From Candidatus Poribacteria bacterium (lineage in GTDB: Bacteria; Poribacteria; WGA-4E; WGA-3G), in NCBI GenBank assembly GCA_965205015.1, contig OZ242029.1, positions 4,832,001 to 4,896,000 of the forward strand: a stretch of 64,000 nucleotides of DNA, read 5' to 3'. Positions within the stretch are counted from its first letter, which is position 1, and each line of letters starts with the position of its first letter. The translations under genes and the position numbers were made by a program. The notes beneath the pieces were generated by a model. It was not told the origin of the DNA. It saw only the letters and a list, made by a program, of their open reading frames with translations, and ran no database searches. Below are positions 23,535 to 48,590 of this stretch, piece by piece.

Positions 23535-26500
23535 CTACTTCCGAATTAGCATTTTTCGTGTTGCTGTGAAATCACCCGCTGTGAGCGTGTAGAGATAGAC
23601 GCCACTCGCCACGGACTCACCTACGTCATTTCTGCCATCCCAATACACCGCTCGACCCCGGCTCTGATAGATACCAGCAGGTGTTTGTCCCAACGCCAAT
23701 GTCCGAACCAATACCCCAGCTACAGAATAGATACGCAACGTGACCGCTGCAGGTTCTGACAACCGATACGGTATCCACGTCTCTGGATTGAATGGATTGG
23801 GATAGTTAGGCAGCAACGCCGTTTCTTCTGGCATCAGCCAGGCTAAAAGACTTCGAAGGTAAGCGATACCCTCTCGGAAGGCGACAGAGCCGTCATCTTC
23901 AACTTTCGCACGTTCTATCCACGCCTGTATCATCGCAGGATCCAATCCCTCTATGTCATCTACAGATAGCATCGAGGGGGCAGCTGAGGCGGTTGATTCA
24001 CCCATGTGCTGTGCTACGAGAATTAAGTCCAAGATACTGACGACTCCGTCGCGGTTTACGTCAACTTTAGAGGTGGCAGACGCAGCGGATCCCATGTGCT
24101 GCGCAACAAGAATTAGATCCAAAATACTGACCTGTCCATCCGCATTCACATCCCAAAGCGGTTGAGACCCCACTGTGATGATAAGATCACGCATGCCAGC
24201 AGGAATCACTTCACCCGCGGTCGATCCGAGTCGGAAGTCCTGCAGTGCTATTTGGCTGTTCCCTTCTGCCTTCGCAGAGAATACCACTGACAACAGTCTC
24301 CCAGTCCCTGCGACACCACCTTTGGAAATCAGTGCCGAACTTAAGCCTGTAATTTTACCCACAGTGTTATCAATCGTACCTTTCTGAAAGAAAGTCGTTC
24401 CACCACCCTTCTTCAGAAAATCACCTTCCTTCACTTCAACGACTTCAAGTACAGTAGGGTCAAACGTAAGATTAAACTGCCATCCTGCTAAATCCGCAAC
24501 CTTTTCGGCGTTGACGTGGACGGTAAAAGTATCCCCGACGCGAACACTTGGGGTATCCGTCGAAAACGTGAAACCGGTTCCGGGGGATATCACCGCATAT
24601 TGCGTGCCGGGTTCAAATCCGAAATAGCCACTAAATTCCCCACCGGCATCATAGACAGCAACCAATAATATATTTATTCCTTGTTTCAGCGTGACGGGCG
24701 CATAACTTTGATAATCACGAGCCCACACCCAGCTAAGGTTCTCGTGAACGAACTCCCCATTGAGCCAGACCTTATGGACAATATCGCTTCCGGCAAATAT
24801 CCGTGTTTGCTGTTCACGCGGCGAATATACGGTGAGGGAACCATAAACGACATTCCTTACATCCCTGTCTCCCTCCATACCAATAGCATTTAGCATTACG
24901 CGGATATTATCTCCTTCCGAGGGTGCAATTTTGTGCGATGTCCATACATTTCCCCCGACAGGACTTCCTTCTGTCGCCCCGCTTGTTGCGATTTCCAGTT
25001 CTGTCACAACACCGTTACTCGCTTGTGAAAGCAAATCCACGTCATCCCAAAAACCGGCTCCCGGCACCAACATCCATAACCAGGGGCCCTCTATTTTCGG
25101 ACCGCCCTGCGGGAAACCTGGATTGCTGAACGAATGGATTTCTGTATTCTCGCGTAACCCATCCAAGGGCGAGAGATCCGAGATGTTGTTCTGCTGAAGT
25201 TGCAACTGTTCCAAGTCGTGTAAATTTGCGAGAGGCGATACATCCGATATCTTATTCCGCGCCAGATTTAACGCTTTAAGATTTTTCAAAGATGCCAAAG
25301 ATGAGATGTCCGATATACGGTTGCCCTGTATTGCAAGCCATTCTAAATTAATCAATCCTCCCAGGGGTGAAACATCCGACACACCACTGGAATTAACACC
25401 TAATCTTACCAAGCTTTTTAATCCTTTTAAAGGTGAGAGATCAAGCTCTTTAGAGGCGTAAGTTTCCAGTCTTTTCAAATTTATGAGTCCTGCCAAGGGC
25501 GATAAATCAGATACCGGGCTGTTCTTAAATTCTAACCATTTGAGTTTCGTTAATCCTGATAGTGGGGAGAGGTCTGAGATGGATGTCTTCCAAAACCCTA
25601 CCCCCTCTAAGTTAACCAAATCTGCCAACGGAGATAGATCCGACAGAGATTCACCAGAAAGTCTTACTTCTTTGAGTGTTGTTAACCCGGATAGAGCGGA
25701 TAAATCAGAGAGCGGATTCCCGCGAAGATTAAGTTCTATCAGATCTACTGCAAACTGAAGCCCCTCCAAATCCTGAATATCCATTCCATCTGCATCAAGG
25801 TGTATCAAAGTCGCCATGTCCTCCGCTGTAATCGCAACGCCGGGTATTTTGCCGAGTGTTTCTGCGATTGCAGCGCGAAGGTTTACGTCAGGGATGTGAA
25901 CGGACTCTCCAGGGATGCGTTCCGTCCTCGGAACAACCGGCTTAACGATAGTGCTGTCAGGAGAATTCAGCGTCACAACGATTTCATTGAAATTCGATGT
26001 CCAGGTATCCCTTTTCACACTTCCACTCGCACCTGTCAGCACTCCCAAGCCTAAGTTTTTTAGATTCGCATTCTCGCGAACCTTTTGGAGGAGATCCGCC
26101 GTTTCTAACCCTACTGCGGCAGCCGCATGTGCCGCAGCAACCGGTCTTTGAAACGCCTCGTGGAACCGCTGAACGGGTTCAATACCACCGAAGACATCAC
26201 CTGTTTTTTCGAGTGCTTGCCGGTAACGAGCGGTATCCTCTTCTAAGAACTCGTCCATCTCCGCCTTCTCTGCATAGAGGCGTAACGCCCGCTCCTTGTT
26301 AAAGGGTGGATTCGCATTCTGTTCAACAACATCCCGCACCTCATCTTCAAACACCTTCATTCCCTCTGTATGACATCCGATGCAGGAGAGACCATTCCGG
26401 ACGGTTGGATCGCTCGCCGCGGGGTTTCGGACAATCTTTATCGGTGCTGCATCAAGCCGGTTGCCACCAGCATCCACCAGATAGTACGCCTGCAAACCGT

Positions 26501-27602
26501 TGGGCAGGTTGAAGATAATCTCACCCCCATCGTGTCTGAAGGAGAGCGGATGGGTAAAAACATTCTGCGTCCCCACGCTTCCAGCGAAGTCGTAACTTTT
26601 CCAATACGCCCCATACCGTGAGGTGTGCCGTTCGACAACACGGTTGTTACTCGATACACCCGAATTATTGAAACCCGCACGCCAGACGCGTCTGCCTGCT
26701 GCGTTCCGAATATTTTCGACAACGTTCACTTCAAGCCGTGTCTCTAACTCCGCAACCGTCTGTGGAAGGTCCAAGATGTCATGATAGAGTGGCGGTACGG
26801 AGGCAGTTGCGATAAACCAATCCACATGAACGAACGGCACCTCGCAATCCATCTGTTCGCGAAGATCGGTTAATTTTTCACGCAGCCGCGTCTGTGTCGG
26901 TGCATCGAACTCAATACGGTATGGATACACCTGTTCAACCAGCGTCCAGCGGTTGACTCCAATCTCCCATTCGTAGTCTCGGAGGTCAATATAGAAGATT
27001 GTTTCTTCCCGATCAATGGGTTGTGGTCTGATAACCTCGCGTCCCCAAGAGAGACTATTCACAAGTTTCGAGAGTGCCCGTTGATAGGCGTGGAGTGCCT
27101 CCACACTCTCACCGGCATTGTAGAGATGCGTCATCGTAAAATAGCGTGTGAAGGCACGGTCAAACGATGATAGTGAGTTGACGTGCGTCTCAATCGTTTC
27201 AAGCATTTCCGTGGGAGTAATAAAGTCAGTATCTCGTTCTGGCATCTGCCAATCCGGCGCGCCTGCTTGAATCCAGTTGCCAATCGTCAGAATCGCAGCG
27301 GCGGGAAGTTGGGGTTGACCCAGCGGCATCCGTTTGACTGGATCTTTTGTGAGGAGTCGCTTATAGAGTTCGGACGCAATTGGTTTTCCCGGAACAACAG
27401 CACCCGTTTCGATGAGTGCCGTGTGCGCAATAATAAGATTCTCGGTGTAGGCACCATGTTCTCCATGGCAGTTGAGACAATTTTGCGCAAAGATAGCATA
27501 TGCCTGTTGGGCGAGATTCTCTTGGGCGTCAGTATTTTTGAGTCCTAAAATGATAAGTGCTAAAACAATTAGAAGGATATATTTTTCTTTGCGTTTCATC
27601 AA
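23535..27602 (-). CDS. Secreted di-heme cytochrome c / LRR / beta-sandwich / cohesin / dockerin / FlgD-T9SS-like-tail protein
   Basis: Signal peptide; CLNCH and CIGCH; internalin-type LRRs; LAGWQFNLTFDPTVLEVV cohesin; DVNADGQVSILDL dockerin; NYPNPFNPETW tail. Confidence 0.85.
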   Translation of the reverse strand: MMKRKEKYILLIVLALIILGLKNTDAQENLAQQAYAIFAQNCLNCHGEHGAYTENLIIAHTALIETGAVVPGKPIASELYKRLLTKDPVKRMPLGQPQLPAAAILTIGNWIQAGAPDWQMPERDTDFITPTEMLETIETHVNSLSSFDRAFTRYFTMTHLYNAGESVEALHAYQRALSKLVNSLSWGREVIRPQPIDREETIFYIDLRDYEWEIGVNRWTLVEQVYPYRIEFDAPTQTRLREKLTDLREQMDCEVPFVHVDWFIATASVPPLYHDILDLPQTVAELETRLEVNVVENIRNAAGRRVWRAGFNNSGVSSNNRVVERHTSRYGAYWKSYDFAGSVGTQNVFTHPLSFRHDGGEIIFNLPNGLQAYYLVDAGGNRLDAAPIKIVRNPAASDPTVRNGLSCIGCHTEGMKVFEDEVRDVVEQNANPPFNKERALRLYAEKAEMDEFLEEDTARYRQALEKTGDVFGGIEPVQRFHEAFQRPVAAAHAAAAVGLETADLLQKVRENANLKNLGLGVLTGASGSVKRDTWTSNFNEIVVTLNSPDSTIVKPVVPRTERIPGESVHIPDVNLRAAIAETLGKIPGVAITAEDMATLIHLDADGMDIQDLEGLQFAVDLIELNLRGNPLSDLSALSGLTTLKEVRLSGESLSDLSPLADLVNLEGVGFWKTSISDLSPLSGLTKLKWLEFKNSPVSDLSPLAGLINLKRLETYASKELDLSPLKGLKSLVRLGVNSSGVSDVSPLGGLINLEWLAIQGNRISDISSLASLKNLKALNLARNKISDVSPLANLHDLEQLQLQQNNISDLSPLDGLRENTEIHSFSNPGFPQGGPKIEGPWLWMLVPGAGFWDDVDLLSQASNGVVTELEIATSGATEGSPVGGNVWTSHKIAPSEGDNIRVMLNAIGMEGDRDVRNVVYGSLTVYSPREQQTRIFAGSDIVHKVWLNGEFVHENLSWVWARDYQSYAPVTLKQGINILLVAVYDAGGEFSGYFGFEPGTQYAVISPGTGFTFSTDTPSVRVGDTFTVHVNAEKVADLAGWQFNLTFDPTVLEVVEVKEGDFLKKGGGTTFFQKGTIDNTVGKITGLSSALISKGGVAGTGRLLSVVFSAKAEGNSQIALQDFRLGSTAGEVIPAGMRDLIITVGSQPLWDVNADGQVSILDLILVAQHMGSAASATSKVDVNRDGVVSILDLILVAQHMGESTASAAPSMLSVDDIEGLDPAMIQAWIERAKVEDDGSVAFREGIAYLRSLLAWLMPEETALLPNYPNPFNPETWIPYRLSEPAAVTLRIYSVAGVLVRTLALGQTPAGIYQSRGRAVYWDGRNDVGESVASGVYLYTLTAGDFTATRKMLIRK

Positions 27603-27695
27603 TATCTTCGGGCTGGAAACCCCGTCTCCAGATAGCGGAGGAAGCCCGCTCCTTTCTCCTTTGACAAATGTCGCCCTTAGGACAGGGTGCTTGCC

Positions 27696-30611
27696 CTATT
27701 TTCGGTGTTCCAGGTTTAACCCAGAAAGTGGCGTCAAATCCTCTATCGGATTTCCCCTGATCCGCAATTCCCGCAGTTCTCGCAAACCCACTAAGGGACG
27801 CAGGTCGGAAATGTCGTTATGTGACAGATGCAAGATCCGAAGTTTTTTCAACCTCGCCAAGGGACCTATATCCGAGACTTTGCTATTCTCCAGCGTGAGT
27901 TCCTCTAAATTGATGAGCTCCGCTAACGGACGCAGGTCAAGGGTTGGCGCGTTTGGAAAGATATCCGAGAGATACAAACGTTTAAGCGTCGTCAAGTTGG
28001 CAAGTGGGCGGAGGTCTGTTATCGGATTGTCTCTAAGGTCAAGTTCCCTAAGATTCGTCGCAAATTCTAAACCTGTGATGTCAGAAATTCCCTTACCCGC
28101 AACATCAATGTCGCCGACCGTTTGCATCCGCTCTTTTGTCAAAGGGACATCGGGTAGCAACCCGATTTCACCCCGAACGGCGGTACGTAATGCTGGGTCG
28201 GGCATCCATGCTTCAGCAAGATCCGTTTGTCCCGTTGTCTGTCCGATAACATCGTATTTCAGGTTTTTAAGGTTCAATCCAGAGAGTGGCGTTAAATCTC
28301 TTATCGGATTCCCTTTGAGCAACAACGTCCGTAGTTCCGTCAGCCCTGATAGCGGTCGGATGTCGGAAATGCCACTATTTAAAAGATCCAAGGTTCGAAG
28401 TTCTTTCAACGCCGCCAACGGACTTATATCCGAAACCTTTATCGGATTGTTAGAAATGTTGAGATCTGCCAGATTCAATCCAGAGAGGGGTGCCAAATCC
28501 CTTATCGGATTTCTCTCAAGCCACAATTGCCACAGTTCCGTCAGTCCCACAAGTGGACTCACATCCTCAATTTGATTATTTGAGAGATGCAAGCGACGCA
28601 GTTTCTTCAACCCCATAAGCGGACGGATATCCGAAATCCAGTTCCCCTCCAAGGACAGCATCTCTAAATTAATGAGATTCGCCAAGGGACGCAGATCCAG
28701 ATTTGTCGGACGGACAGGGACATGCCAGAAATGAAACTCCACGAGTTGGGTCAGATTCGACAGTGGACGTAAATCTGTTATCGGATTCTGACGCAAATGT
28801 AGCACCCTAAGATTCGTTGCGAACTCCAATCCTGTGATGTCCAAGATGCCTTTGTCATGTGCCTTGAGATAGGTCAATCTCAGCATCTTTTTCTGGGTCA
28901 AGGGGATGCCTGGTAGCAGTCCGATTTCACCGCGAACCGCCGCTCGCAACGCTGGGTCGGGCATCCACGCTTCGGAAGGTTGTGTTTGTCCTACTGGATC
29001 CGATACAGCATCGTATTTCAGGTCTGTGAGATTCAATGTCGACAGCAGTGTAAAATCTTTTATCGGATTCTCTTTGAGTGCCAAGGTCCGCAGTTCCGTC
29101 AGACCCGTTAGTGGACTTAAGTCTCCAACGCGATTGTCTGTAAGGACAAGTTCCTTTAGGTTTTCCAAACCTGCGAGTGGAACAACGTTTTCAACTTCGT
29201 TGTCAAAAAGGTCTAATACCTCTAAACTTCTCAGATTCGCAAGCGGACTTAGATCCTTTACACGATTGTTAGCCAAATTCAGGTAGATAAGGGAAGTCAA
29301 CGCCCTCAGTGGAGATATATCAATTACGTGATTATTCCAGAGACTTAACTCGGTTAGATTCGTTAGGTTCACAAGCGGTCTCAGATTTGCGACTTGGTTG
29401 CCTCCTACATCGAGATTCATCAAAGATGTGAGCGTAGCGAGAGGACTTAAGTCGATAACATAATTACCCTCGTCTCCTAAATGTAAATCCACTAAATTTT
29501 GCGCGAATTCTAAACCCTTTATATCAGCAATCCCTCTTCCCCCGGCGTTTAGACGCTCCAGTCCTTGCATAGTATCCTGCGTCAAGGGTGCGGTTGCGGG
29601 CAGTCCGAGTTCCTCCCGAATCGCCGCACGCAATGCGGGATCGGGCATCCAGTGGGTCTGAGTATCTTCTGGCGGCACAGGCGCGATGGACGTTGAAACG
29701 CTTTTAGAAACCTGTAATCCGTTACCGATGGTATTATCAATGGGAACGACGGCACGTCCACTTTGATTGCGTAGTGCGGGTTTCGCGTCGGTCTCTAAGA
29801 CAATAGGTACATCCACGATCTCAATGGTCGGTTCAGATTCTGCCTCGAAACTATAGGGTCTCTGAAAACGAGCGAGGTGTTGGTTGCTGAGTCCGATCAA
29901 AAATAGAATCAAAACCACAGCCGCGCCAAACGCCGCCCATGGGAGCAACGGTTTCGTAGCCGAGGGTGGGGTCAGTTTCAAGTCAGCGACTTGCTGCATG
30001 ATGTTCTGGGTTAAATTCGCCGATATCTCCACACCGCCGAGAACTTCTTGAACCAAGCCTTCCTCTTTCTCCCGTAAACGTTTTCGTGCCCGACTGAGCC
30101 GACTACTGATCGTTTTTACGGAAACGCCCAAGAACTTACTAATCTCCTTCATTGTCATTTCGCCGAGATAGAAAAGCGTCATGACGGTGCGTTCACTCTC
30201 CGGGAGTTTTTCCAGAAGTTTTTTCACGAGTTCACGCCGGCGTTCCTCGGCTTCCGCCTCGCGGTGCGCCGACAAATAGTGAGTATAGGAGAGTTTTTCT
30301 ACTTCATCCACGCGTGTGTCCTCCAGCGATTGCATCGCAGATTTTTGCTTTCGCAGCCAATTCAGGCACCGTCGATTCGCGATGACATAGAGCCACCCGG
30401 CAAATTGATGGGGATCTCTGAGCGTCGGGAGTTTTTTATAGACTTGGAGGAAGGTGTCTTGCGTAATCTCTTCAGCATAATGAAAATCGCCGATCTTCCG
30501 CCATACAAGCGCATGAACGCTTTTTTGGTACTTTTCGACCAAGATGCTAAACGCGACATCATCACCTGATAAAATTCTCTGTATCAATTGAACATCGTCT
30601 TCTCTTGCCAT
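27696..30611 (-). CDS. ECF sigma factor fused to a TM helix and extracytoplasmic LRRs
   Basis: AEEITQDTFLQ..WLYVIANRRCLN (region 2); LPESER..EISKFLGVS (region 4); PWAAFGAAVVLILFLIGL TM; three WMPDPALR-capped LRR blocks. Confidence 0.88.
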   Translation of the reverse strand: MAREDDVQLIQRILSGDDVAFSILVEKYQKSVHALVWRKIGDFHYAEEITQDTFLQVYKKLPTLRDPHQFAGWLYVIANRRCLNWLRKQKSAMQSLEDTRVDEVEKLSYTHYLSAHREAEAEERRRELVKKLLEKLPESERTVMTLFYLGEMTMKEISKFLGVSVKTISSRLSRARKRLREKEEGLVQEVLGGVEISANLTQNIMQQVADLKLTPPSATKPLLPWAAFGAAVVLILFLIGLSNQHLARFQRPYSFEAESEPTIEIVDVPIVLETDAKPALRNQSGRAVVPIDNTIGNGLQVSKSVSTSIAPVPPEDTQTHWMPDPALRAAIREELGLPATAPLTQDTMQGLERLNAGGRGIADIKGLEFAQNLVDLHLGDEGNYVIDLSPLATLTSLMNLDVGGNQVANLRPLVNLTNLTELSLWNNHVIDISPLRALTSLIYLNLANNRVKDLSPLANLRSLEVLDLFDNEVENVVPLAGLENLKELVLTDNRVGDLSPLTGLTELRTLALKENPIKDFTLLSTLNLTDLKYDAVSDPVGQTQPSEAWMPDPALRAAVRGEIGLLPGIPLTQKKMLRLTYLKAHDKGILDITGLEFATNLRVLHLRQNPITDLRPLSNLTQLVEFHFWHVPVRPTNLDLRPLANLINLEMLSLEGNWISDIRPLMGLKKLRRLHLSNNQIEDVSPLVGLTELWQLWLERNPIRDLAPLSGLNLADLNISNNPIKVSDISPLAALKELRTLDLLNSGISDIRPLSGLTELRTLLLKGNPIRDLTPLSGLNLKNLKYDVIGQTTGQTDLAEAWMPDPALRTAVRGEIGLLPDVPLTKERMQTVGDIDVAGKGISDITGLEFATNLRELDLRDNPITDLRPLANLTTLKRLYLSDIFPNAPTLDLRPLAELINLEELTLENSKVSDIGPLARLKKLRILHLSHNDISDLRPLVGLRELRELRIRGNPIEDLTPLSGLNLEHRK

Positions 30612-30698
30612 CAGGATTCTCCATGATTCATGAACAGGTTTCGCAGCCTTGAATTCAAAGACTGCACCATTTAATGTGGGACCCTACCTTCCCTGTTG

Positions 30699-30731
30699 TT
30701 AAAGACACAATTTTTTATTAAAAGTCTGCAC
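30699..30731 (-). promoter_or_regulatory. Putative ECF autoregulatory promoter
   Basis: Minus strand TGCAGA-N16-GTGTCTTTAA; 18 bp identical to 45341..45358. Confidence 0.55.
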
Positions 30732-30807
30732 TAATTTAGCGCAAGTTGCTATTTTTAAAAAATAAGAAATAGCATTCATACCTCTCAAACGCGCCGTTAA
30801 AGAGAGA

Positions 30808-30844
30808 AAGGGTGGAAACCCTCTAACGTCCACCCTCCTTTTTT
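30808..30844 (-). terminator. Hairpin terminator after 30865..34899
   Basis: AGGGTGGA...TCCACCCT stem with pyrimidine/purine tracts on either side. Confidence 0.6.
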
Positions 30845-30864: not shown

Positions 30865-33800
30865 CTACTTCTTTACCAGCATTTTTCGGGTAGCAGTGAA
30901 ATCACCAGCGGTGAAGGTGTAGAAATAGATACCGCTCGCTACGGGTTCACCTACGTCATTTCTGCCATCCCAATACGCCGCACGGCTGCGGTTTTGGTAA
31001 ATTCCAGCAGACGTTTGTCCCAACGTCAATGTCCGAACCAATACTCCATTTACAGAATAGATACGCAACGTGACATCTGCGGGTTCCGAGAGTTGATACG
31101 GTATCCACGTCTCTGGATTGAACGGGTTGGGATAGTTCGCAAGCAACACTGTTTTTTCTGGAATCAGCGATGCTAAGAGGCGTCGAAGGTTCACAATGCC
31201 CTCTTGGAAAGCAATAGAACCATCATCTTCAACTTGGGCACGTTCTATCCACGCCTGTATCACCGCAGGCTCCAACTCGCTTATACCATCCACGGTAAGC
31301 ATCGAAGGCGCAGCTGCGGCAGTTGCCCCACCCATGTTCTGGGAGACAAGGATGAGATCCAGGACATTGATAACCCCATCACCATTTAGGTCAACTTCCG
31401 AGTTGGCGGGCACAGTTTTCCCGAAGTGTCGAGCCACCAGCACCAAGTCCAGGATGCTCACCTGACCGTCCCGATTCACATCCCCGGTCCTCTGTTCCCC
31501 CTTTACAGCAATGACGACCTCCTGCGGTCCTGCATCGATGGACTTACCGGTGATAGCAGCGAGTTGAAAATTATCGAGTTTCAACCGCGTGTGTCCAGGG
31601 GCTTTCGCTGTAAATGTTACCGACAATAGCGTGCCAGTGCCGCTAACGCCATCTTCACCGAGTCGCGCTGCACTCAGACCTTTAATCTTACCCAACCGAT
31701 TCTCAATCGTCCCTCTCTGGAAGAAGGTCGCTCCGCCGTCTGTTTTCAGGAAATCGCCTTCATTGACTTCAACGGCTTCAAGCACAGCAGCGTCATAAGC
31801 GATATCAAATTGCCAGCCCGCCAAATTGTAGATATCCTCTGCCCGAATTTCAAGCGTGAAGGTATCGCCGGCATCGATGATAGATTGGGAAAACACGTAT
31901 CCGACACGCGGGTTTAGCACGGTATACTCTGCCTCAGGGTTAAACCCCCAAAAACCGTTCCCCCCCGTTCTTGTTGCTACTAACAAGACATTTACACCCT
32001 CTTTGAGCGTAACAGGAACGAAATGTTGGTAATCTTCACCGCGTGCGCCTTTAAGTTTTTCATGGACCAAAACACCGTTGAGCCACGCTTTACCGCCACC
32101 ATCATTCCCAGCAAACAGCGTTACCTCTTGTTCTCGCGGTGAATACAGGACGACACATCCATAGATAACGCCGGGCACAAAAGGACCTGCTAACACCTCC
32201 TCTGTTAACACCTCCGCAATATTATTCCGCCCCGTAGTCGGTATTTTGTCGGAATACCAGATGTTATCCCCAACAGGGTTACCTTCGATTGCGCCGTTGG
32301 TTGAAACCTTTACTTCTGTCACCGCGCCACCACTCACCTCCGCAAGAAGATCCCTTGCGAGCTGATCATCTGTACCGCCTTTAACATCTGTCTCTGGCAC
32401 CAGCACCCATAACCAGGGTCCCTCTATTTTAGGTCCACCTTGAGGGAAAGCGGGATTGGTGTGATTAATGATCGTTACATCCTCACTGAATCCCTCTAAA
32501 GGCGAAAAGTCGGATATCATATTTCCACCAACGTGTAGCCATGTCAAGTTCTTTAACTTTGCCACGGGTGATACATCCACTATTTTGTTCTCTGAGAGTT
32601 CTAACCATTTCAGATTCGTTAACTTTGCTAAGGGTGATATATCCGATACGGGGTTGCCTGCAACGCGTAAGCGTGTTAATCCCGTCAATTTCGCCACAGG
32701 GGAGACATCCGACACCCCGCCTCCGAGAAGATAGAGTTCTTTCAAATTTTTCGCGCCCGCCAAGGTGGATACATCCGGCTCCCCCCCACAAATATCTATG
32801 ACCTCAAGTTCTATGAGTGGCGATAGGTCGGACACGGGATTTCCCCAAGAATCAAACCTGTTCAGATTGGGCAATCCCGCCAGAGGTGAGAGATCCGATA
32901 TGTTGTTATGACTTACCTTTACGTGTCTAAGATTTTTTAGTCCCGCCAGCGCGGATAAGTCACTTATCTCATTGCCACTGATATCCAAAAGATCCAGTTT
33001 CGGTAATCCCGCTATAGGGGATATGTCGGATATTTGGTTTCCCTGAATTTTTAACCATTCCAAATTTGTTGCAAACTCAAGCCCCGTCAAATCGCGGATG
33101 CCCATTTCTTCAGGAAAAATCCGATGTAACCTCGTCATATCTTCCACTGTAATTGGGGTGTTTGGTGTTTTTCCGAGTTTTTCTTCAATGAACGCACGTA
33201 AATTCGGGTCGGGGAGGTAGACAGATGCCCCAGGGATGCGTTCCGTCTGCGGGTCGACGGAAATCGCCACATCCGGGAAATCCAACGCAAACACGATTTC
33301 ACTAAACTTCGATGTCCATGTATCTCTTTTCATCGTACCATTTTCTAAGACTAACACCCCTAAGCTTTTCAAATTCGCGGAGGCACGAATCTTTTGGAGA
33401 AACGCCTCGGTCTCCAACCCAACGGCGGCAGCGGCATACGCCGCATCGACCGGTCTTTGAAACGCCTCGTGGAATCGATGAACGGGTTCAATCCCACCAA
33501 ACACATCGCCGGTCGCTTTAAGTGCTTGTTTATAGCGATCAGTATCCTCCGCCACGAGTCCCGCCATCGTGGCTTTGTCTGTATAGAGTTGCAACGCTCG
33601 GTCTTTGTTAAATGGGGGGTTTGGGTTCTTCTCAACAACAGTACGCACCTCATCTTCAAACAGCTTCATTCCTTCGGTATGGCAACCGATGCACGAGAGG
33701 CCATTGCGCACAGTCGGATCGCTCGCAGCAAGGTTGCGAACAATCTTTATGGGTGCCGCATCAAGTCGTCTACCACCGGCATCTGCAAGATAGTATGCCT

Positions 33801-38248: not shown

Positions 38249-41200
38249 CTATTTCAAAATCAGCATCTTCCGCGTGGCAGAGAAATCCCCAGCTGTGAGT
38301 GTATAGAAATAAACACCACTCGAAACTTTTTCACCGACAGCGTTACAACCGTCCCAATACGCCGCACGACCTCGCGTCTGATACATTCCGGCAGGTTGAT
38401 ACCCTAACGTTATGGTTCGCACGACTTCACCCGCCGCAGAATATATTGTCAGTGTCACCTCACTTGGGTTCGCCAAGTGATACGGTATCCACGTCTCCGG
38501 ATTGAATGGGTTGGGATAGTTCGCAAGCAGCATTGTCTCTTTTGGAATCAGTGATAGCAGCAGTTCTTGAAGTTTTGCGATCCCCTGTCGGAAGGCGATA
38601 GAGCCGTCATCTTCCATTTGTGCACGTTCTATCCATGTCCGTATTATCGCAGGATCCAATCCGTCTATGTCATCCACAGATAACATCGAAGGGGCGGCTA
38701 ACCCGTTTGATCCACCCATATTCTGAGAAACAAGAATGAGATCTAAGATATTCACAATTCCATCGCCATTCACGTCTACTTCAGCGTTCGCAGGTGCAGT
38801 TTCGCCCAAGTGTCGGGCAATAAGGATCATATCAAGAATGCTGACCTGACCATCGCGATTCACATCTCCAATAGTGAGTTGACCTTCTATCGTGATGACA
38901 ATCTCATAAGATTCTGCGGCGATGTGCTCACCTGTAATAGATCCCATTTGGAGGTTATGCAGTCTCAATTTAGCTTCCCCACTCGTTTTCGCTGAGAACG
39001 TCACCGACACGAGGGTCCCTGTTCCTGAGACACCCTTTCCACTAAGGTCCAATGCGTTAATACCTTTGATTTTGCCCGCGGCATTATCAATCGTCCCTTT
39101 CTGAAAGAGGGTGCTGTCGCCCGCCGACTTCAGGAAAGGACCTTCGTTGACTTCAACGGTCTCAAGCACTGCGGCATCAAACAAAATATCAAATTGCCAC
39201 CCTGCTAAATCACTTACATTCTCCGCGTTTAAGTTGACGGTGAAGGTATCACCGATATGAATTGGCGTATCGGGAAAACCATATCCAATACCGGAGTCCG
39301 ACACTATATATTCCGTACCGGTTTCAAATCCAAAAAAACCGTTAGCATGGGAATGGAAAGCGACCAACAAGACATTTTTCCCCGATTGAAGCGTGACTGG
39401 GTAAAAATCCGTGTAATCATTGCCTATCCTGTCGTAATGACCGTGCTGATGAATCAGGGTACCGTTGAACCAGACTTTTAGTTCCTGGCGACTGCCGACA
39501 CCCAGCATTGTTTGTTGTTCGCGTGGCGAATATAGAGACACAACACCATAGATGGTTCCATCTGGAGTGGAGCGTTTTAGCATATCTTCAATACGCCCCG
39601 TATTTGGGAGTTCGTGGGATGTCCAGACGCTACTGCCGATAGACTGTCCCGCTATTGCCCCACGGACGGCAATCTCTGCCTCTGTTACGCTTCCATCACT
39701 CGCCTCCGACAGTAAATCCGACCCACTCTCCAGATCAGCATCTGGCAATAGGACCCATAACCAGGGTCCTGCTATCTTCGGTCCGCCTTTCGGGAACCCT
39801 GGATTGTCGTGCCAAATGAGCGTTATGTTCTGGCGTATCCCATCCAAAGGCGAAAAGTCGGATATATTATTGTTGTTAAGCCTCAGGTAGTCCAAGTGTG
39901 TCAACCCGGCGAGTGGCGATATGTCGGATACATTGTTGCTTCTGAGATCAAGCGTATTTACGTTGGTTAGCTCAGCGAGTGGCGATATATCGGATATCCC
40001 GTTAGCAGCAAGGAGCAGATTCCTCAAATTTGTCAAACCCACCAAAGGCTTAAGATCGGATATAGTTCCACCACAAATGTCTAACTTCTCCAGTTTTGTT
40101 AATCCTGCCAAAGGGGACAAATCGGATATGGGGTTGCCCCAAAACCAAATCCGTCTCAGATTGGTTAATCCTGCCAGGGGTGAAAGGTCGGATATATTCC
40201 CATGCTTAGTGTCTATCACGATCCCGGTTTCCGTTTCGATTTTGCTGATTGCCTCAAATATACCGCCTTGGTTCGCAGCTACATCCTCCAGGCTGTTTAA
40301 TCCGCTGAGTGGCGACAGGTCGGAGACTTGTGTACGATGAAACCAGAACACCTTGAGATTTTTCAGTCCTTTCAAGGGCGATAAATCGGATATGAGAGGC
40401 GTAGAAGCCCCTAACTCGTTGAGATTGATTAATCCTGCAAGCGGTGATAGATTCGATACATGCGTGTTATCAATTACCAATAGCGTGAGATTTATTAGCT
40501 GCTTCAGGGGCGATAAATCAGATACAGGGTTGCCCGTGAGCCAGAGTGTGTGTAATCCGGTTAAACCCGCTATCGGTGAGAGGTCGGAGATCTGATTACC
40601 GTTGAGAGATAAGCGGCTCAGATTGATTGCTGACTGAAGTCCAGTCAAATCTTGGATGCCCTTGTCACGCGCCACAAGTCTGCCCAATCCTTCCATCTCC
40701 TCGATTGTAATTTGGGCGTTTGGTGCCTTTCCGAGTGCCTCCGCAATTGCCGTACGCAGATTCGGATCGGGCATATGAACAGATTCGCCCGGAATACGTT
40801 CCGTTTGCGGATCAACTGGTGTCACAGCACTTTTTGCTGGGAAATCCAGAGCGAAAACGACTTCACTAAACTGACTTGTCCATGTGTCCCGTTTCATCGT
40901 GTCGTTCTCTAACACCAATAAGCCTAAGTTCTGCAACCCCGCATTCTCACGTATCTTTTGGAGAAACACCTCGGTTTCCAAACCGACCGCTGCAGCAGCA
41001 TGCGCCGCATCAAGCGGTCTCTGAAATGCTTCGTGGAACCGTTGAACGGGTTCAATCCCACCAAATACACCGCCTGTCGCTTCAAGTGCCTGTCGATACC
41101 GAGCGGTATCTTCGCCCACCAAACGATCCATAGTGGCTTTATCAGTATAGAGCTGTAATGCTCTTTCCTTGTTAAAAGGCGGATTCGCGTTCCGTTGAAT

Positions 41201-42469
41201 AACAGCCCGAACTGTATCTTGAAAATCTTTCATCCCCTCGGTGTGGCATCCGATACAGGAGAGTCCGTTACGGACGGTTGGATCGCTCGCAGCCGGATTG
41301 GAAACGATGTCTATCGGTGCCTCATCAAGTCGCCTACCGCCGGCATCCACGAGGTAGTATGCCTGCAATCCATTCGGTAAATTGAAGATAATTTCACCCC
41401 CATCCTGCGTGAAGGAGAGCGGATGCGTAAAGATATTCTGTGTCCCGACACTCCCCGCAAAGTCGTAACTTTTCCAATACGCTCCGTATCGAGAGTCGTG
41501 CCGTTCAACAACACGGTTATGATTGGACACACCGGAATCATTGAAACCCGCACGCCAGACGCGCTTTCCTGGGGCATTCCGAATATTTTCAACGACATTT
41601 ACTTCTAATCGAGTTTCGAGTTCACGATCCGTCTCGGGGAGTCCCAGAATATCATGGTAGAGCGGGGGTAAAGAGGCTGTTGCGATGAACCAATCGACAT
41701 GAACGAACGGCACTTCGCACTCCATTGTTTCCCGCAGGTCTGTCAGTTTTTCGCGAAGTGCTGTCTGTGTTGGCGCGTTGAATTCGATCTCATAAGGATA
41801 CTCCGCCTCAATCAACGTCCATCGATTGGTTCCGATCTCCCATTCGTAGTCGCGCAGATCAATATAGAAGATCGTTTCTTCTGAATCAATGGGTTGTGGA
41901 ATTTTAATAGTACGCCCCCAAGAGAGACTGTTCACGAGTTTTGAGAGTGCGCGTTGATAGGCGTGGAGTGCTTCCGTCGTCTCACCACCGTTATAGAGAT
42001 GCGTCATCGTAAAATAACGTGCGAAGGCACGGTCAAAGGAGGACAGTGAGTTGACGTGCTTTTCAATCGTCTCAAGCATTTTTTTCGGTGTAATAAAGTC
42101 GGTGTCTCGTTCCGGTGTCTGCCAATCCGGTGCGCCTGCTTGAATCCAATTACCAATCGTCAGAATCGCAGCGGGAGGGAGTTGGGGTTGTCCCAGCGGC
42201 ATCCGTTTCGCCGGATCGTTTACAAGCAACCGCTTATAGAGTTCGGAGTCAATCGGTTTCCCCGGAACAACTGCGCCAGTCTCTATGAGTGCTGTGTGAT
42301 CAATGATGATTTCTTCAGTAAACGCGCCGTGTTCTCCATGGCAGTTGAGGCAACTTTGCTCAAAAATCGCATACGCCTGCTGGGCGAGGTTCTGTTGTGC
42401 ATTAGCACTTCCGAACCCTAACGCCATGAAAGTTAAAGTGATAAGTAAAAGATTTTTTGCTGTTTTCAT
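38249..42469 (-). CDS. Secreted di-heme cytochrome c / LRR / cohesin / dockerin / FlgD-T9SS-like-tail protein (paralog 3)
   Basis: Same architecture as 23535..27602. Confidence 0.85.
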   Translation of the reverse strand: MKTAKNLLLITLTFMALGFGSANAQQNLAQQAYAIFEQSCLNCHGEHGAFTEEIIIDHTALIETGAVVPGKPIDSELYKRLLVNDPAKRMPLGQPQLPPAAILTIGNWIQAGAPDWQTPERDTDFITPKKMLETIEKHVNSLSSFDRAFARYFTMTHLYNGGETTEALHAYQRALSKLVNSLSWGRTIKIPQPIDSEETIFYIDLRDYEWEIGTNRWTLIEAEYPYEIEFNAPTQTALREKLTDLRETMECEVPFVHVDWFIATASLPPLYHDILGLPETDRELETRLEVNVVENIRNAPGKRVWRAGFNDSGVSNHNRVVERHDSRYGAYWKSYDFAGSVGTQNIFTHPLSFTQDGGEIIFNLPNGLQAYYLVDAGGRRLDEAPIDIVSNPAASDPTVRNGLSCIGCHTEGMKDFQDTVRAVIQRNANPPFNKERALQLYTDKATMDRLVGEDTARYRQALEATGGVFGGIEPVQRFHEAFQRPLDAAHAAAAVGLETEVFLQKIRENAGLQNLGLLVLENDTMKRDTWTSQFSEVVFALDFPAKSAVTPVDPQTERIPGESVHMPDPNLRTAIAEALGKAPNAQITIEEMEGLGRLVARDKGIQDLTGLQSAINLSRLSLNGNQISDLSPIAGLTGLHTLWLTGNPVSDLSPLKQLINLTLLVIDNTHVSNLSPLAGLINLNELGASTPLISDLSPLKGLKNLKVFWFHRTQVSDLSPLSGLNSLEDVAANQGGIFEAISKIETETGIVIDTKHGNISDLSPLAGLTNLRRIWFWGNPISDLSPLAGLTKLEKLDICGGTISDLKPLVGLTNLRNLLLAANGISDISPLAELTNVNTLDLRSNNVSDISPLAGLTHLDYLRLNNNNISDFSPLDGIRQNITLIWHDNPGFPKGGPKIAGPWLWVLLPDADLESGSDLLSEASDGSVTEAEIAVRGAIAGQSIGSSVWTSHELPNTGRIEDMLKRSTPDGTIYGVVSLYSPREQQTMLGVGSRQELKVWFNGTLIHQHGHYDRIGNDYTDFYPVTLQSGKNVLLVAFHSHANGFFGFETGTEYIVSDSGIGYGFPDTPIHIGDTFTVNLNAENVSDLAGWQFDILFDAAVLETVEVNEGPFLKSAGDSTLFQKGTIDNAAGKIKGINALDLSGKGVSGTGTLVSVTFSAKTSGEAKLRLHNLQMGSITGEHIAAESYEIVITIEGQLTIGDVNRDGQVSILDMILIARHLGETAPANAEVDVNGDGIVNILDLILVSQNMGGSNGLAAPSMLSVDDIDGLDPAIIRTWIERAQMEDDGSIAFRQGIAKLQELLLSLIPKETMLLANYPNPFNPETWIPYHLANPSEVTLTIYSAAGEVVRTITLGYQPAGMYQTRGRAAYWDGCNAVGEKVSSGVYFYTLTAGDFSATRKMLILK

Positions 42470-42541: not shown

Positions 42542-45220
42542 CTATTTCAGGTAGATTTCACCGTCCAAATCAGCAAGGGTGTGCTGAATATTGGTGATGC
42601 CCCTCGCGACAGCGGATGCTTGCGCCGGTAAATAAATCTCTTGCGCTTTTCCGCTGCGATTGTAGACTGCCCAACCATTGGTGAACTCCCGGATAAACAA
42701 ACCCTCAACCCCATGTCCCTTACCATCACGATAAAGGCGCGCCTTCTCGCCTACAGGACGACCGAGGTCCGCATCCCAGAATGGATACCAATAGTGTTGG
42801 TGGTTGTGATTATGCCGCTCACCTACTATATGTTCTCTCTCATGTTCGGGCGAGAGCGCGTATTCATGCTGATGGATGATGCCGGTAACTCCCATGACAT
42901 AACAAACGTAACCATCAGAATGTGTGAGGCTCAACGTCGTAATAACACGCATCATTTGCTGGTTACGGGGAGAATCTGGACGCTCAAACGGAATTCCTTG
43001 ACCTTCAAGCGCATTTATTCGCGGTCCACGAAAGTTCTGCTCCGACCATAACAACGTGCTTTCAATCTCTCGGAGACGCTCATGCGTGTAAGCCGTATCA
43101 CCTTCGTCCAGAATCGTTTCTATGAACGCCCCATTAAGGTAGGGTGCAGACAGTCGAGCTTTATGCCGTCCCGTATTGACAATCATCAGAAAATTGTCAC
43201 CAACAGCCTCACGAATCCGACGCATCATAGATATTCTCGCCGACCACTCGGCTTCAACACCTCGATAGTAAACCCCGTTGTCGTCCTCAAGCGTAACCTC
43301 GCCTTCCTGCCACCGTCCCAAGAAGACCCCGTCATGGAGACTACATTTCGCGACGGCGAGAACTTTCTGAACGAGGATGTCCTGGACGACAGGGTGTGTG
43401 AAATCTATCAGGAAGGTGGAACCCCCAGCGTAAGCTTGAACTCGATCGCCGTTCGCATCTCTTATCCAATGGGGCCACTCTTCAGGGTAGTCGCTTGGAT
43501 CAGCATCAATGTAGTCGAGACTCACAAGTCTTAGAAAGTTAGGATTTTTTGAAAGCAGATACTCCCTTTTCCCGTGTGCATCGTCTATTCTACCAAAGAG
43601 CCGGAGTCCTTCAGGTGTAGGCTGCCATTGCAGATGAAACCCCGGTCCACCCCAAAATAGATCGTGATAGACGAGTTCCTCATCTGCAGATAAGTTTGGT
43701 ACGTTGAGCATATCGTAATACCACGCTGAAAAGACCGAAGGATACTCCCTATCTTTGATACGAGATGCTACCGCGACCCGCGATATATCATCACAGATCC
43801 GGAAATTGCCATGCGTGTGTAACTCCTCTAAGTGCGTCAGCCCATCGAGGGGTGAAAAATCCCGAATATCATTATTTTCTACTAATAACTTTTTGAGATT
43901 GACTAACCCTGCAAGGGGTGAAATATCTTCGATGTGGTTCTGCCAAACATGTAAAGTCTCTAAACGCGTGAGTGCTGTGAGCGGACGTAGGTCCGAAATC
44001 TGGTTCTCTCCCAAATCCAGAAAAGCAAGTCCCGTTAGACTTGACAAAGGAGATATATCGTGAATCTTGTTCCCTATCAGAACAAGTGCTTGCAAATCAG
44101 TCGCGTGCTCTAAACCTATAAGATCGACGATCCCTTTATATCGCACATCAAGGGTTGTTAGGTGTTGAAGATCCCCCGGTGCCAATAGGTGGTGTGCTGG
44201 AAGCTGAAGCGTTTCTCGGACAGCCTGTCGGAGCGCGGAGTCCGGCATCCACTGTCCCTCAGAAAGTTTGAGTGAATCTTTTGAGGCATTGGGTGTTAAA
44301 TGCCTCTCGGGATCGTGTAAGCCGGTACTATTGTTTTTACTGATGGTGGTCGTTTGTCCAATTTGATTTCGCACGGAGGGTTTTGCGTCAGTCTCAAGGA
44401 CAATAGGGGCATCCATAATTTCAACGGTCGGGGCGGATTCAGCCTCGAAGCTGTAAGGTTTCTGAAAATGTGCGAGGTATTGGTTGCTGACGCTGAGCAT
44501 CAACAGGGTTGCTAAAACCACAGCACTCCCAAAAGCCGCCCACGGCAAGAACGGTTCCATTTTCGGAGAAGGGGTCGGTTGCATGTTAGCAACCTCTCGC
44601 ATGATGTTCTGTTTTATACTCGCCGATATCTGCACACCCCCGAGCACTTCTTGGATCAACAGTTCTTCATCTTCTTGTAACCGTTTCCGGGCACGATGCA
44701 GCCGAGTCCTTATCGTCTCCACTGACACCCCCAAGAATTTGCCAATGTCCTTCGTCGTCATTTCACCGAGATAATAGAGCGTCATCGCTGTCCGTTCACT
44801 CTCCGGCAATTTCTCCAAAAGTTTTTTGACGATTTCAAAACGATGTTCGGTTGCCTCTGTCTCGCGCCGTTCTAAGATGTAACGCGCATAAGCGGATTTC
44901 ACCACTTCTTCCACAGGTGTGTCCTCCAAGGATTGCAAGTGTCTTTCAGGTTTCTGTTTGCGCAGCCAATTCAGACACAGCCGATTCGCAATGACATACA
45001 GCCACCCGAGAAACTGGCTCGGATTTCTCAGCGTTGAAAGGTTTTGATAGGCACGGAGGAAAGTATCTTGCGTAATTTCCTCTGCATAGTGGAAATCACC
45101 GATCTTCCGCCACACGAGGGCGTGAACACTTTTTTGGTATTTTTCTACTAAAATGTCAAATGCCGTGTCGTCGCCTGACAAAACGGCATGAATCAACTGA
45201 ACATCGTCTTTTCTCTCCAC
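42542..45220 (-). CDS. ECF sigma factor fused to TM, LRRs and a putative GH-like domain
   Basis: GTG start with SD GAGGAGG; sigma regions 2 and 4; TM; LRRs; C-terminus homologous to 35713..37962. Confidence 0.88.
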   Translation of the reverse strand: MERKDDVQLIHAVLSGDDTAFDILVEKYQKSVHALVWRKIGDFHYAEEITQDTFLRAYQNLSTLRNPSQFLGWLYVIANRLCLNWLRKQKPERHLQSLEDTPVEEVVKSAYARYILERRETEATEHRFEIVKKLLEKLPESERTAMTLYYLGEMTTKDIGKFLGVSVETIRTRLHRARKRLQEDEELLIQEVLGGVQISASIKQNIMREVANMQPTPSPKMEPFLPWAAFGSAVVLATLLMLSVSNQYLAHFQKPYSFEAESAPTVEIMDAPIVLETDAKPSVRNQIGQTTTISKNNSTGLHDPERHLTPNASKDSLKLSEGQWMPDSALRQAVRETLQLPAHHLLAPGDLQHLTTLDVRYKGIVDLIGLEHATDLQALVLIGNKIHDISPLSSLTGLAFLDLGENQISDLRPLTALTRLETLHVWQNHIEDISPLAGLVNLKKLLVENNDIRDFSPLDGLTHLEELHTHGNFRICDDISRVAVASRIKDREYPSVFSAWYYDMLNVPNLSADEELVYHDLFWGGPGFHLQWQPTPEGLRLFGRIDDAHGKREYLLSKNPNFLRLVSLDYIDADPSDYPEEWPHWIRDANGDRVQAYAGGSTFLIDFTHPVVQDILVQKVLAVAKCSLHDGVFLGRWQEGEVTLEDDNGVYYRGVEAEWSARISMMRRIREAVGDNFLMIVNTGRHKARLSAPYLNGAFIETILDEGDTAYTHERLREIESTLLWSEQNFRGPRINALEGQGIPFERPDSPRNQQMMRVITTLSLTHSDGYVCYVMGVTGIIHQHEYALSPEHEREHIVGERHNHNHQHYWYPFWDADLGRPVGEKARLYRDGKGHGVEGLFIREFTNGWAVYNRSGKAQEIYLPAQASAVARGITNIQHTLADLDGEIYLK

Positions 45221-45340
45221 GGAGCTCCCTCCTCATAAACAGATTCAACCGTGTCGACTTCCACTGAAACATCCAATTCGGTACTAAGTCTCGGACTTTA
45301 TGCCATGCAACACAGTTTACACAATTATGTTATGACAATA

Positions 45341-45372
45341 TTAAAGACACAATTTTTTCGTGAAACGTTACA
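45341..45372 (-). promoter_or_regulatory. Putative ECF autoregulatory promoter
   Basis: Minus strand TGTAAC-N16-GTGTCTTTAA. Confidence 0.55.

Positions 45373-48516: not shown

Positions 48517-48590
<74 letters not shown>

Follow-up and report, generated by a model that had tools for sequence, protein, structure and literature searches.

The stretch of DNA analysed here (the window; 64,000 nt of contig OZ242029.1 of a Candidatus Poribacteria bacterium, assembly GCA_965205015.1) contains a cluster of six large open reading frames (ORFs), all on the minus strand, in which transmembrane (TM) fusions of extracytoplasmic function (ECF) sigma factors precede genes for large secreted haem/leucine-rich repeat (LRR)/cohesin-dockerin proteins. 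A regulatory link from the sigma factors to these genes is well supported. The window is chromosomal, since it holds rpsL-rpsG-fusA-tuf and other housekeeping genes. Named relatives of the sigma fusions and of the large proteins are Candidatus Poribacteria, as are all 63 loci found in a species-representative genome collection.

The sigma fusions are called sig1 and sig2, the large haem proteins big1, big2, and big3, and the LRR-GHL15-dockerin gene ghl. In the direction of reading, sig1 (42542..45220, -; 892 aa; ECF sigma, TM, LRR, and GHL15, by Pfam, TIGR02937, hydropathy, and alignments) is followed after 72 nt by big1 (38249..42469, -; 1406 aa; assigned by Pfam, NCBIfam, and motifs), then by ghl (35713..37962, -) and by the third large paralogue, big2 (30865..34899, -). 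The ORF of ghl runs to 38202, the likely true start being M81 (37962), which gives a signal peptide; that of big2 runs to 35007, with M37 (34899) as the likely true start. The second pair consists of sig2 (27696..30611, -; 971 aa) and, 93 nt behind it, big3 (23535..27602, -; 1355 aa). An earlier note on this DNA had described the six ORFs with their domains, the two fusions each directly followed by a large secreted protein, and a third such protein and an LRR-GH-dockerin gene (GH, glycoside hydrolase) between the pairs, all of which is borne out by Pfam, NCBIfam, and AlphaFold2 (AF2). It had also noted that the pairing occurs twice. Both pairs are real, but they are paralogous duplicates, sig1 and sig2 being ~80% identical over the first 290 aa and the large proteins 66-68% identical overall, and so do not count as two independent observations; independence comes only from related genomes.

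Both fusions carry Sigma70_r2 (54.5 and 54.6 bits in sig1 and sig2, respectively), Sigma70_r4_2 (59 and 58.1 bits), and Sigma70_ECF (25 and 26.5 bits; cut-off 21.1), all above the curated Pfam cut-offs, and reach 97.4 and 101.1 bits with the NCBIfam ECF superfamily model TIGR02937 (cut-off 42.9). Neither sigma region 3 nor region 1 was matched in them by Pfam at E ≤ 0.01, and they fit the definition of ECF (group 4) sigma-70 factors, with sigma-2 and sigma-4 regions only. In sig1, sigma-2 (residues 24-90) and sigma-4 (130-183) are followed by a linker, a TM helix (~223-247), a juxtamembrane segment (~245-290), a Ser/Thr-rich linker, LRRs (~324-475), and GHL15 (580-850; 34.1 bits, Pfam cut-off 27). 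In sig2 the sigma domain, linker, TM helix (~218-247), and juxtamembrane segment are followed by three tandem LRR domains that extend to the C-terminus; LRR_4 is matched in both proteins. Each fusion has a single strongly hydrophobic 19-mer stretch (starts 223-228 in sig1, 218-229 in sig2; mean Kyte-Doolittle up to 2.42), and the linker between sigma-4 and this TM helix is only about 35 aa long. In agreement with the earlier note, which had seen no anti-sigma gene, no anti-sigma family was matched in any cluster ORF, fusions and neighbours alike, at E ≤ 0.01 in Pfam and NCBIfam. Zinc-finger, FecR, and RsgI_N domains gave no Pfam match in the fusions, the conserved juxtamembrane segment has no Asn-Pro, and the entire sig2 sequence contains a single Cys.

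Sixteen aligned fusions have in common the sigma domain, the TM helix, and a ~45-residue extracytoplasmic juxtamembrane segment, after which a variable Ser/Thr-rich linker and the sensor follow. The first 300 residues of sig2 match more than 6,627 clusters of proteins of 534-1700 aa, the best 120 of which are at least 69% identical over this part. A search among shorter proteins adds 2,299 clusters, including a recurrent ~460-aa form, Kelch-bearing forms, and forms of 227-307 aa with little or no ectodomain, some short forms possibly being contig-end fragments. At least about 8,900 clusters at 90% identity carry the constant sigma-TM-juxtamembrane cassette, with LRR, GHL15, BNR, and Kelch as swappable ectodomains; among the long fusions these are LRR, LRR plus GHL15, or BNR/Sortilin-type propellers. 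The ectodomains of sig1 and sig2 are 650-750 aa of LRR or GHL15. The LRRs are of internalin type, and only the LRR part matched internalins, GHL15 having no solved relative by sequence. The sig1 ectodomain is 36% identical to secreted ghl over 598 aa, up to the start of the ghl dockerin.

The three large proteins each have a signal-peptide-like N-terminus and two CxxCH motifs (positions 40/405 in big1, 74/439 in big2 counted from the GTG start, and 42/407 in big3), and each carry PSCyt1 (26-27.2 bits; cut-off 22), LRR_4, one Cohesin domain (PF00963, 41.4-53 bits; cut-off 24.1), Dockerin_1 (PF00404, 38-40 bits; cut-off 22.9), and FlgD_ig in Pfam. The Por_Secre_tail model TIGR04183 is matched by big1 (30.7 bits) and big3 (30.4 bits; cut-off 23) in a scan that took in these two proteins. 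In big1 the order is a dihaem module (~25-550), LRRs, a PA14/CBM-like beta-sandwich (CBM, carbohydrate-binding module), cohesin (1072-1168), dockerin (1201-1250), and a C-terminal domain (CTD, 1318-1404). A profile of 30 cohesins matches the solved cohesins 3l8q (1.6e-13) and 2b59 (9.4e-7), which come from anchoring or adaptor scaffoldins.

Conservation of the gene order was followed with a profile from the alignment of the three large proteins, scanned against genome contigs; 10 kb were kept on each side of the best 80 of 166 matches, which gave the 63 loci (numbered L001 onwards) in 39 Poribacteria genomes, and their ORFs were classed by BLASTP against domain pieces of the window proteins. 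Of 36 sigma-fusion genes in these loci, two lie at locus ends and 34 are evaluable. A haem-protein gene is directly next on the same strand in 20 of the 34, with gaps of -4 to 153 nt; it follows an intervening ORF of 133-150 aa in two, and an LRR-GHL15-dockerin gene in ten. The remaining two are followed by a GHL15-dockerin gene without a haem-protein gene in the next two positions. Overall, the haem-LRR-cohesin-dockerin gene comes first or second downstream of 32/34 sigma genes, and the pairing is seen in 17/39 genomes. Single pairs amid unrelated genes are found in L029, L030, L034, and L039, where haem-protein identity to big1 goes down to 57% (L039). The count centred on haem-protein genes has 91 rows, of which four are duplicates (L001/L014, L004/L019) and ten of the 87 unique ones fall short of upstream sequence, leaving 77; the upstream neighbour is a sigma fusion in 20, a GHL15-dockerin gene in 16, and another haem-protein gene or split half in 11. 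A secreted GHL15 gene lies within the next three genes of 15/25 GHL15-type sigma genes and of 1/9 LRR-only ones, a contrast that, as a hand count of related rows, is only suggestive.

The upstream regions of sig1 and sig2 have in common the stretch AAAAAATTGTGTCTTTAA. A 15-mer core, AAATTGTGTCTTTAA, has two exact matches in the window (0.21 expected), at 45341..45355 and 30699..30713, both before sigma genes, and 13 in the related loci, 11 of them 30-250 nt upstream of sigma genes. The pattern is bipartite, with a -35-like element (GATGTAAC, TAGTGCAGAC, TTATGCGAA, or TTATGCAG), a T-rich stretch, and (C/T)GTCTTTAA ~17 nt on. Both sigma genes of the window have it upstream, as do 31 of 36 evaluable relatives. 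Before sig1 (45338..45383, -) the -35-like GATGTAAC is followed after about 17 nt by the -10-like TGTCTTTAA, and the motif ends ~117 nt before the sigma start (position weight matrix, PWM, score 48.0). Before sig2 (30696..30741, -) the elements are TAGTGCAGAC and TGTCTTTAA, and the motif ends ~84 nt before the start (PWM score 56.6). The sig1 variant also stands before orthologous sigma genes in L003, L007, and L009, the sig2 variant before 10 orthologues. We take the motif to resemble ECF promoters, with their AAC-type -35 and CGTC-type -10 elements.

Scanning all loci (2.59 Mb, both strands) with the PWM yielded 45 hits, 27 of them training sites. Of the 45, 44 fall between genes on the strand of the cluster, and 31 have a sigma fusion as their next gene. 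Some of the others lie directly before haem-protein genes without an adjacent sigma gene (L021 5571, L004 3449 = L019 14337, L005 1241, and L049 9761). The variant is of sig1 type at L021 5571, L004 3449, and L005 1241, and a sig1-type sigma is present elsewhere in the loci from two of the three genomes, OY764016 and OZ242349. At the 3' side of clusters the motif is found 109-110 nt ahead of genes for secreted PD40 (TolB-like propeller) proteins, which are possibly further regulon members (L015 16576, L040 15890, L045 18689, and L049 21154). Other sites precede a WD40 gene and then a haem-protein gene (L041), a degenerate sigma remnant and then a haem-protein gene (L025), and a lipoprotein gene set (L022). 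The window has no further site even at a low PWM threshold, and none directly before big1, big3, ghl, or big2. A scan of the window for sigma-70 promoters and terminators gave counts no higher than in shuffles.

In the 31 sigma genes whose motif can be recognised, motif and sigma factor vary together. The sigma-4 helix VETIRTRLH or VGTVWTRLH is paired with GATGTAAC/G (4/4), VKTISSRLS with TAGTGCAGAC (11/11), and SAIHNRLY with TTATGCGAA (6/6). At the end of sigma-2, the variable residue of C-x-(N/D)-W goes with the base before GTC, Asn with T in 15/15 and Asp with C in 15/15, one Ser occurring with C. Both traits need at least three changes on the sigma-TM tree (trait residue masked), one of them inside the sig2 clade, at L019_7631. 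These pairings are good but not conclusive evidence that each sigma factor recognises the promoter before its own gene.

The dihaem module of the large proteins is a domain family of its own, as yet uncharacterised. Residues 1-560 of big3 match 4,945 representatives of a 50%-identity library at E ≤ 0.001 and 1,603 at 1e-30, and Pfam covers only the first ~55 residues of the module (PSCyt1). In 24 sampled relatives the ~520-aa module is N-terminal in TPR, WD40, beta-helix, LRR, and FGE-sulfatase proteins, or internal, behind a Ser/Thr kinase or FHA domain. The two CxxCH motifs, Met92, and many polar residues do not vary in 38/38 aligned relatives. The AF2 model of big3 1-560 is of high confidence (pLDDT 90.8, pTM 0.88), and Foldseek found 0 matches to it in the PDB at E ≤ 0.001, the best template-modelling (TM) score being about 0.1. 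A phmmer search of PDB sequences gave only a weak cytochrome c match (E 0.032), and the ESM Atlas only unnamed or PSCyt1-bearing clusters. A weak Pfam match to CTI (fatty-acid cis/trans isomerase) was present in only 6/38 relatives, with a best E of 1.6e-4, so that homology was not accepted.

Between LRRs and cohesin lies the beta-sandwich, modelled by AF2 for big3 826-1005 (pLDDT 89.5). The model has 45 matches at E ≤ 0.001, with TM scores of 0.41-0.49 for full-length matches, and moderately resembles a GH2 sugar-binding domain, PA14, CBM35, and an RsgI sensor domain; the ESM Atlas gave sub-threshold PA14/rhamnosidase leads. A complex prediction for the big1 cohesin and the ghl dockerin gave no answer (score 0.03, mark 0.32) and counts neither for nor against binding.

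Dockerin-bearing cargo is found within the cluster and beyond it. A signal peptide is followed in ghl by LRRs, GHL15, and a C-terminal dockerin, as matched in Pfam, the latter with two Ca-binding repeats, DLNRDGIVNILD and DVNGDGTVNVLD. Behind big3, beyond the range given by the earlier note, follow p246 (22775..23515, -; 246 aa, 19 nt after big3) and, 80 nt further, a gene for a secreted WD40-dockerin protein (20634..22694, -; Dockerin_1 52.2 bits, cut-off 22.9), probably the last dockerin cargo of the sig2 unit. No Pfam or NCBIfam match, signal peptide, or TM helix was found in p246, homologues of which adjoin haem-protein genes in L009, L013, L022 (three copies), L025, and L026. On the plus strand, two secreted WD40-dockerin-CTD proteins (50100..52679, Dockerin_1 43.1 bits, FlgD_ig 40.1 bits; 52823..55786, Dockerin_1 35.3 bits, FlgD_ig 32.4 bits) belong to this cohesin-dockerin set as unlinked members. 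In a pattern search that covered big1, ghl, and the three WD40 proteins, the DxNxDGxVxxxD repeat was duplicated in all but 52823..55786, which has a single match. The window thus has 7 dockerins and 3 cohesins in total, and the set extends well beyond 23535..45372. Its cargo consists of GHL15 and WD40 proteins, and that of related clusters of DUF6259 (weakly GH66-like) plus dockerin, LRR plus dockerin, and LRR plus GHL15 plus YWTD-propeller plus CTD proteins. Cargo loci of the dockerin or CTD type in relatives are L012 6164, L016 16258, L021 14319, and L040 11705, as well as L021 2494 and L035 10133.

Several smaller features were noted around these genes. Haem-protein genes split into a haem plus LRR ORF and a sandwich-cohesin-dockerin-CTD ORF occur in related metagenome-assembled genomes (L007 20042..24195, L011 11707..15755, L013 4613..8796, and L040 916..4976), and may be frameshifts, assembly errors, or real splits. 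The gap of 813 nt upstream of big2 contains a 109-aa ORF (35239..35568). Upstream of sig1, a 1.4-kb gap holds, at 45480..45978 (-), a 55-aa C-terminal fragment of a PIN domain (PF01850, 24.2 bits) and an internally repetitive 113-aa ORF, which look like a decayed toxin-antitoxin pair. A tRNA-Arg gene (CCG; 48516..48591, +) is the only RNA gene from Rfam and tRNA scans of the window. Small membrane and lipoprotein genes occupy 15872..20552 (-), including two paralogue pairs, 19415..19996/17625..18245 (56% identity; Zn-ribbon, DUF1493) and 18813..19316/18258..18770 (61% identity). The lipoprotein gene 17029..17649 and the TPR lipoprotein gene 15872..16945 resemble genes that come after haem-protein genes in L022 and L041, and in L022 a sigma-type promoter motif precedes those lipoprotein-like genes. 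At 2605..4152 (+), 38 kb from the cluster, a Peptidase_S41/PDZ processing protease (CtpB- or Prc-like) is encoded, for which no link to the cluster is claimed; in the case of the IutY sigma fusion, site 1 is cut by a protease of this class (PMC8999054; here and below, papers are cited from excerpts).

On balance, and with a somewhat better than even chance of being right, the region is read as a signalling and surface system specific to Poribacteria and organised in two tandem transcription units, in which a one-component ECF receptor would induce its own gene, drive the genes behind it, and be released by proteolysis. The units are probably sig1-big1(-ghl-big2) and sig2-big3-p246-WD40. The boundary between them is drawn from the motifs and from a terminator-like hairpin with a T-rich tail after big2 (30807..30824, -), itself weak, terminator-like sites in the region being no more numerous than in shuffles. 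Since ghl and big2 have no motif of their own, their expression would rest on read-through or other promoters. Each receptor would consist of cytoplasmic sigma-2/sigma-4, the ~35-aa linker, one TM helix, the ~45-aa juxtamembrane segment, the Ser/Thr-rich linker, and a sensor, predicted to be LRR plus GHL15 in sig1 and LRR only in sig2, and each sigma gene most likely has its own ECF-type promoter that drives it and the genes behind. The products would be three scaffold-like secreted proteins, with one cohesin, one dockerin, and a type IX secretion system (T9SS)-type CTD each, together with dockerin-tagged LRR-GHL15 and WD40 cargo.

In the proposed working, the ectodomain would bind an extracellular ligand. 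Since the sensor of sig1 and the secreted GHL15 protein are paralogues, this is probably a glycan or glycoconjugate from the (host) matrix around the cell; for the GHL15-type sensor we lean slightly towards such a ligand. Cleavage in the juxtamembrane/TM region (regulated proteolysis) would follow, and the freed sigma domain would bring RNA polymerase to its own promoter, with self-amplification and induction of the operon. Once exported, the products might form a layer or complex on the cell surface, held together by cohesins and dockerins. Domain architectures, gene order, and the promoter motif with its co-variation are direct observations; self-regulation, the nature of the ligand, release by cleavage, assembly, and a possible function for the haem module are what we infer. 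There are precedents in the proteolytic activation of IutY and ECF52 (PMC8999054) and of RsgI (PMC10328401). ECFs usually autoregulate (PMC7826278), and comparable promoter motifs are given for other ECF groups in the supplement of the same paper. The earlier note had proposed a surface complex of repeat proteins rather than cellulases. LRR and WD40 proteins are indeed present, but GHL15 in the window, DUF6259/GH66-like modules in relatives, and the sugar-binding-like sandwich are also part of the set, and these GH-like and carbohydrate-binding-like modules render a role directed at glycans as likely as one of repeat proteins alone.

A number of observations weigh against this reading or narrow it. 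The loci were chosen by their haem protein, so that the sigma-centred count is conditional and the neighbourhoods of BNR-, Kelch-, and short-type sigma genes lie outside the sample. The upstream neighbour is unrelated in 30 of the 77 haem-protein genes, and no sigma factor is found among 36 scanned neighbours at 22 stand-alone loci, which are housekeeping, WD40, TPR, or LamG proteins instead. The adjacency claimed by the earlier note therefore holds in relatives from the side of the sigma genes, but only for a subset of haem-protein genes. Among stand-alone haem-protein genes, 28/31 upstream regions are without the -10 core and the other 3 without the -35 part; gaps of 286 nt before ghl and 813 nt before big2 are without the motif. 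The co-variation comes down to 2-3 independent pairs, all concordant and too few for significance (sign test p 0.5). The LRRs of the sigma fusions are no closer to those of their neighbours than to others, all pairs being 35-48% identical. GHL15 is a hypothetical/putative glycoside-hydrolase-like family only, and the sugar-binding likeness of the beta-sandwich is only moderate (TM 0.44-0.49, E about 1e-4). T9SS (Por secretion structural) genes were reported not found in poribacterial single-cell genomes (PMC3909097, in the sections drawn on), so that the C-terminal sorting-type domain has a putative role only. An anti-sigma domain that would keep the tethered sigma factor inactive is absent.

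Three other explanations were weighed against the self-inducing, proteolytically released receptor. The sigma factors and the large proteins might have no regulatory link, two expanded paralogue families having come to stand side by side by tandem duplication, with the sigmas controlling other genes or only themselves. The paralogy of the two window pairs, the many haem-protein genes that stand alone, and the motif-free starts of big1, big3, ghl, and big2 fit such an origin. We nevertheless consider it very unlikely, since order and orientation are kept in 32/34 sigma genes from 17 genomes with haem-protein identity down to 57%, the gaps are short (-4 to 153 nt in 20 direct cases), and 4 haem-protein genes that have no sigma gene carry this motif directly upstream. 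With the same wiring, the sigma factor might never be released, acting while tethered in the manner of ToxR or CadC, or through oligomerisation or conformational change driven by the ectodomain. Release from an inhibitor presupposes an inhibitor, and here an anti-sigma domain is absent and the linker from sigma-4 to the TM helix has only ~35 residues; short forms of 227-307 aa, in which the ectodomain is reduced or missing, are known as well, but many of these may be contig-end fragments. Against permanent tethering, the juxtamembrane segment stays conserved across fusions with different ectodomains, as would suit a shared processing site, and the excerpts of PMC8999054 describe no membrane-tethered sigma active without cleavage, the characterised TM-fused sigma/anti-sigma systems cited there using proteolysis. 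This mode of action is held to be improbable.

The third explanation concerns the output and keeps the wiring. The products might form an adhesive or host-interaction coat of eukaryote-like LRR and WD40 proteins for recognition by sponge cells or their evasion, the sensors binding host proteins, which is possible, if doubtful. LRR and WD40 are protein-binding folds, the LRRs are of internalin type, and the sig2 sensor consists of LRRs only; moreover, LRR, WD40, and TPR proteins with TIGR04183 tails are enriched in Poribacteria and discussed as host-interaction factors in PMC3909097. Sugars are suggested instead by GHL15 in one sensor and in the cargo, by the DUF6259/GH66-like dockerin cargo of related clusters, and by the likeness of the beta-sandwich to GH2 sugar-binding, PA14, and CBM35 domains. 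A glycan-directed complex and a host-interaction coat are not mutually exclusive. A wider reading is put forward tentatively and is, as a whole, rather unlikely to hold in full: a phylum-wide class of anti-sigma-less single-pass ECF receptors, each with its own promoter variant and a matching cohesin-dockerin surface set, would build a non-cellulolytic, cellulosome-like, redox-active organelle for the host matrix, with a dihaem domain that in other proteins forms the extracytoplasmic portion of Ser/Thr kinases.

Poribacteria, dominant symbionts of sponges that have not been cultivated, have many eukaryote-like repeat proteins; these have been put forward as candidate symbiosis factors, with their regulation so far a blank. 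A sigma factor with its own sensor offers a concrete circuit, in which -35 and -10 variants are paired with sigma-4 and sigma-2 residues and adjoin the probable targets. For ECF biology, a very large fusion family without an anti-sigma domain, if true, would raise the question of how a tethered sigma is silenced. For cohesin-dockerin biology, regulated modular surface assembly would be extended to a Gram-negative-type, non-cellulolytic lineage.

The components have known counterparts. A cohesin module and a dockerin with two predicted Ca-binding repeats are found in cellulosome-type systems, the C-terminal sorting domain TIGR04183 of big1 and big3 in T9SS type A cargo, and CxxCH haem-attachment motifs with the PSCyt1 model in c-type cytochromes. 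Eukaryote-like repeat proteins, i.e., LRR (PF12799) and WD40 proteins that carry a signal peptide and a TIGR04183 tail, were reported to be abundant in poribacterial single-cell genomes (PMC3909097). The terms sigma, cohesin, dockerin, and cytochrome do not occur in the main text of that paper, and the sections drawn on say nothing of the regulatory pairing, the promoter, or the dihaem module. No paper was found that links Poribacteria with cohesin/dockerin or with sigma-factor fusions, the one mention being of a sigma-factor antagonist of an Acidobacterium-like organism. In the main text and part of the supplement of the ECF re-classification paper, neither 'Poribacteria' nor 'LRR' occurs. 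The combination, which the earlier note had called undescribed, is to this extent new, but the concept of a TM-anchored ECF fusion was already known.

Among such fusions, ECF52 and ECF53 of Actinobacteria (e.g., SCO4117) have an ECF core, a C-terminal TM part, and an extracytoplasmic part, sometimes carbohydrate-binding, and no separate anti-sigma gene (PMC8999054, PMC7826278). SCO4117 induces itself, and proteolytic activation has been proposed (PMC8999054, PMC7826278, PMC5826349). These groups have, according to the same excerpts, a zinc-finger (ZAS-like) anti-sigma segment between sigma-4 and TM, 1-2 TM helices, and extensions of up to ~400 aa, whereas the proteins described here come from another phylum and have no zinc finger, a ~35-aa linker, ectodomains of 650-750 aa of LRR/GHL15, and a conserved juxtamembrane segment. 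ECF57 of Planctomycetes (formerly ECF01-Gob) has a long C-terminal extension with TM helices and, in some members, a WD40-like propeller (PMC7826278). Its ~2 TM helices and the fully conserved Cys pair of sigma-2/sigma-4, as given there, are both absent here, each fusion having one hydrophobic segment and sig2 a single Cys. IutY of Pseudomonas putida, an ECF243 sigma/FecR-type fusion whose activation runs through Prc and RseP in regulated intramembrane proteolysis (PMC8999054), likewise joins sigma factor and TM sensor in one protein; as described, it has a FecR-type anti-sigma domain and takes its signal from a TonB-dependent receptor, and no FecR domain is present here.

The SigI-RsgI systems of the clostridial cellulosome are alike in having several paralogous sigma/sensor modules with sensors that resemble the regulated cohesin-dockerin components, e.g., the GH10 of RsgI6 (PMC10328401, PMC6056542). 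The likeness of the sig1 ectodomain to secreted ghl is of this kind, and the analogy drawn by the earlier note is apt. The layout of TM, conserved periplasmic segment, linker, and sensor is also shared, as is autoregulation, which is here predicted from the motif. In SigI-RsgI, however, RsgI is a separate protein, which has its anti-sigma domain at the N-terminus and also an autocleavage domain of the Asn-Pro type, while sig1 and sig2 are single polypeptides with an ECF-type sigma and no Asn-Pro. Cellulosome scaffoldins have several cohesins, each scaffold-like protein here has one. Cellulosomes have catalytic GH cargo; the cargo here consists of the putative GH family GHL15 and WD40 proteins in the window, with DUF6259/GH66-like proteins in relatives. 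TM-anchored ECF fusions (ECF52, ECF53, ECF57, and IutY) are thus known and follow the same principle, and the window proteins fail the defining features of each group. What is new is a very large family of anti-sigma-less sigma-TM cassettes, a readable promoter/sigma code, and the pairing with cohesin-dockerin proteins that bear an uncharacterised dihaem fold.

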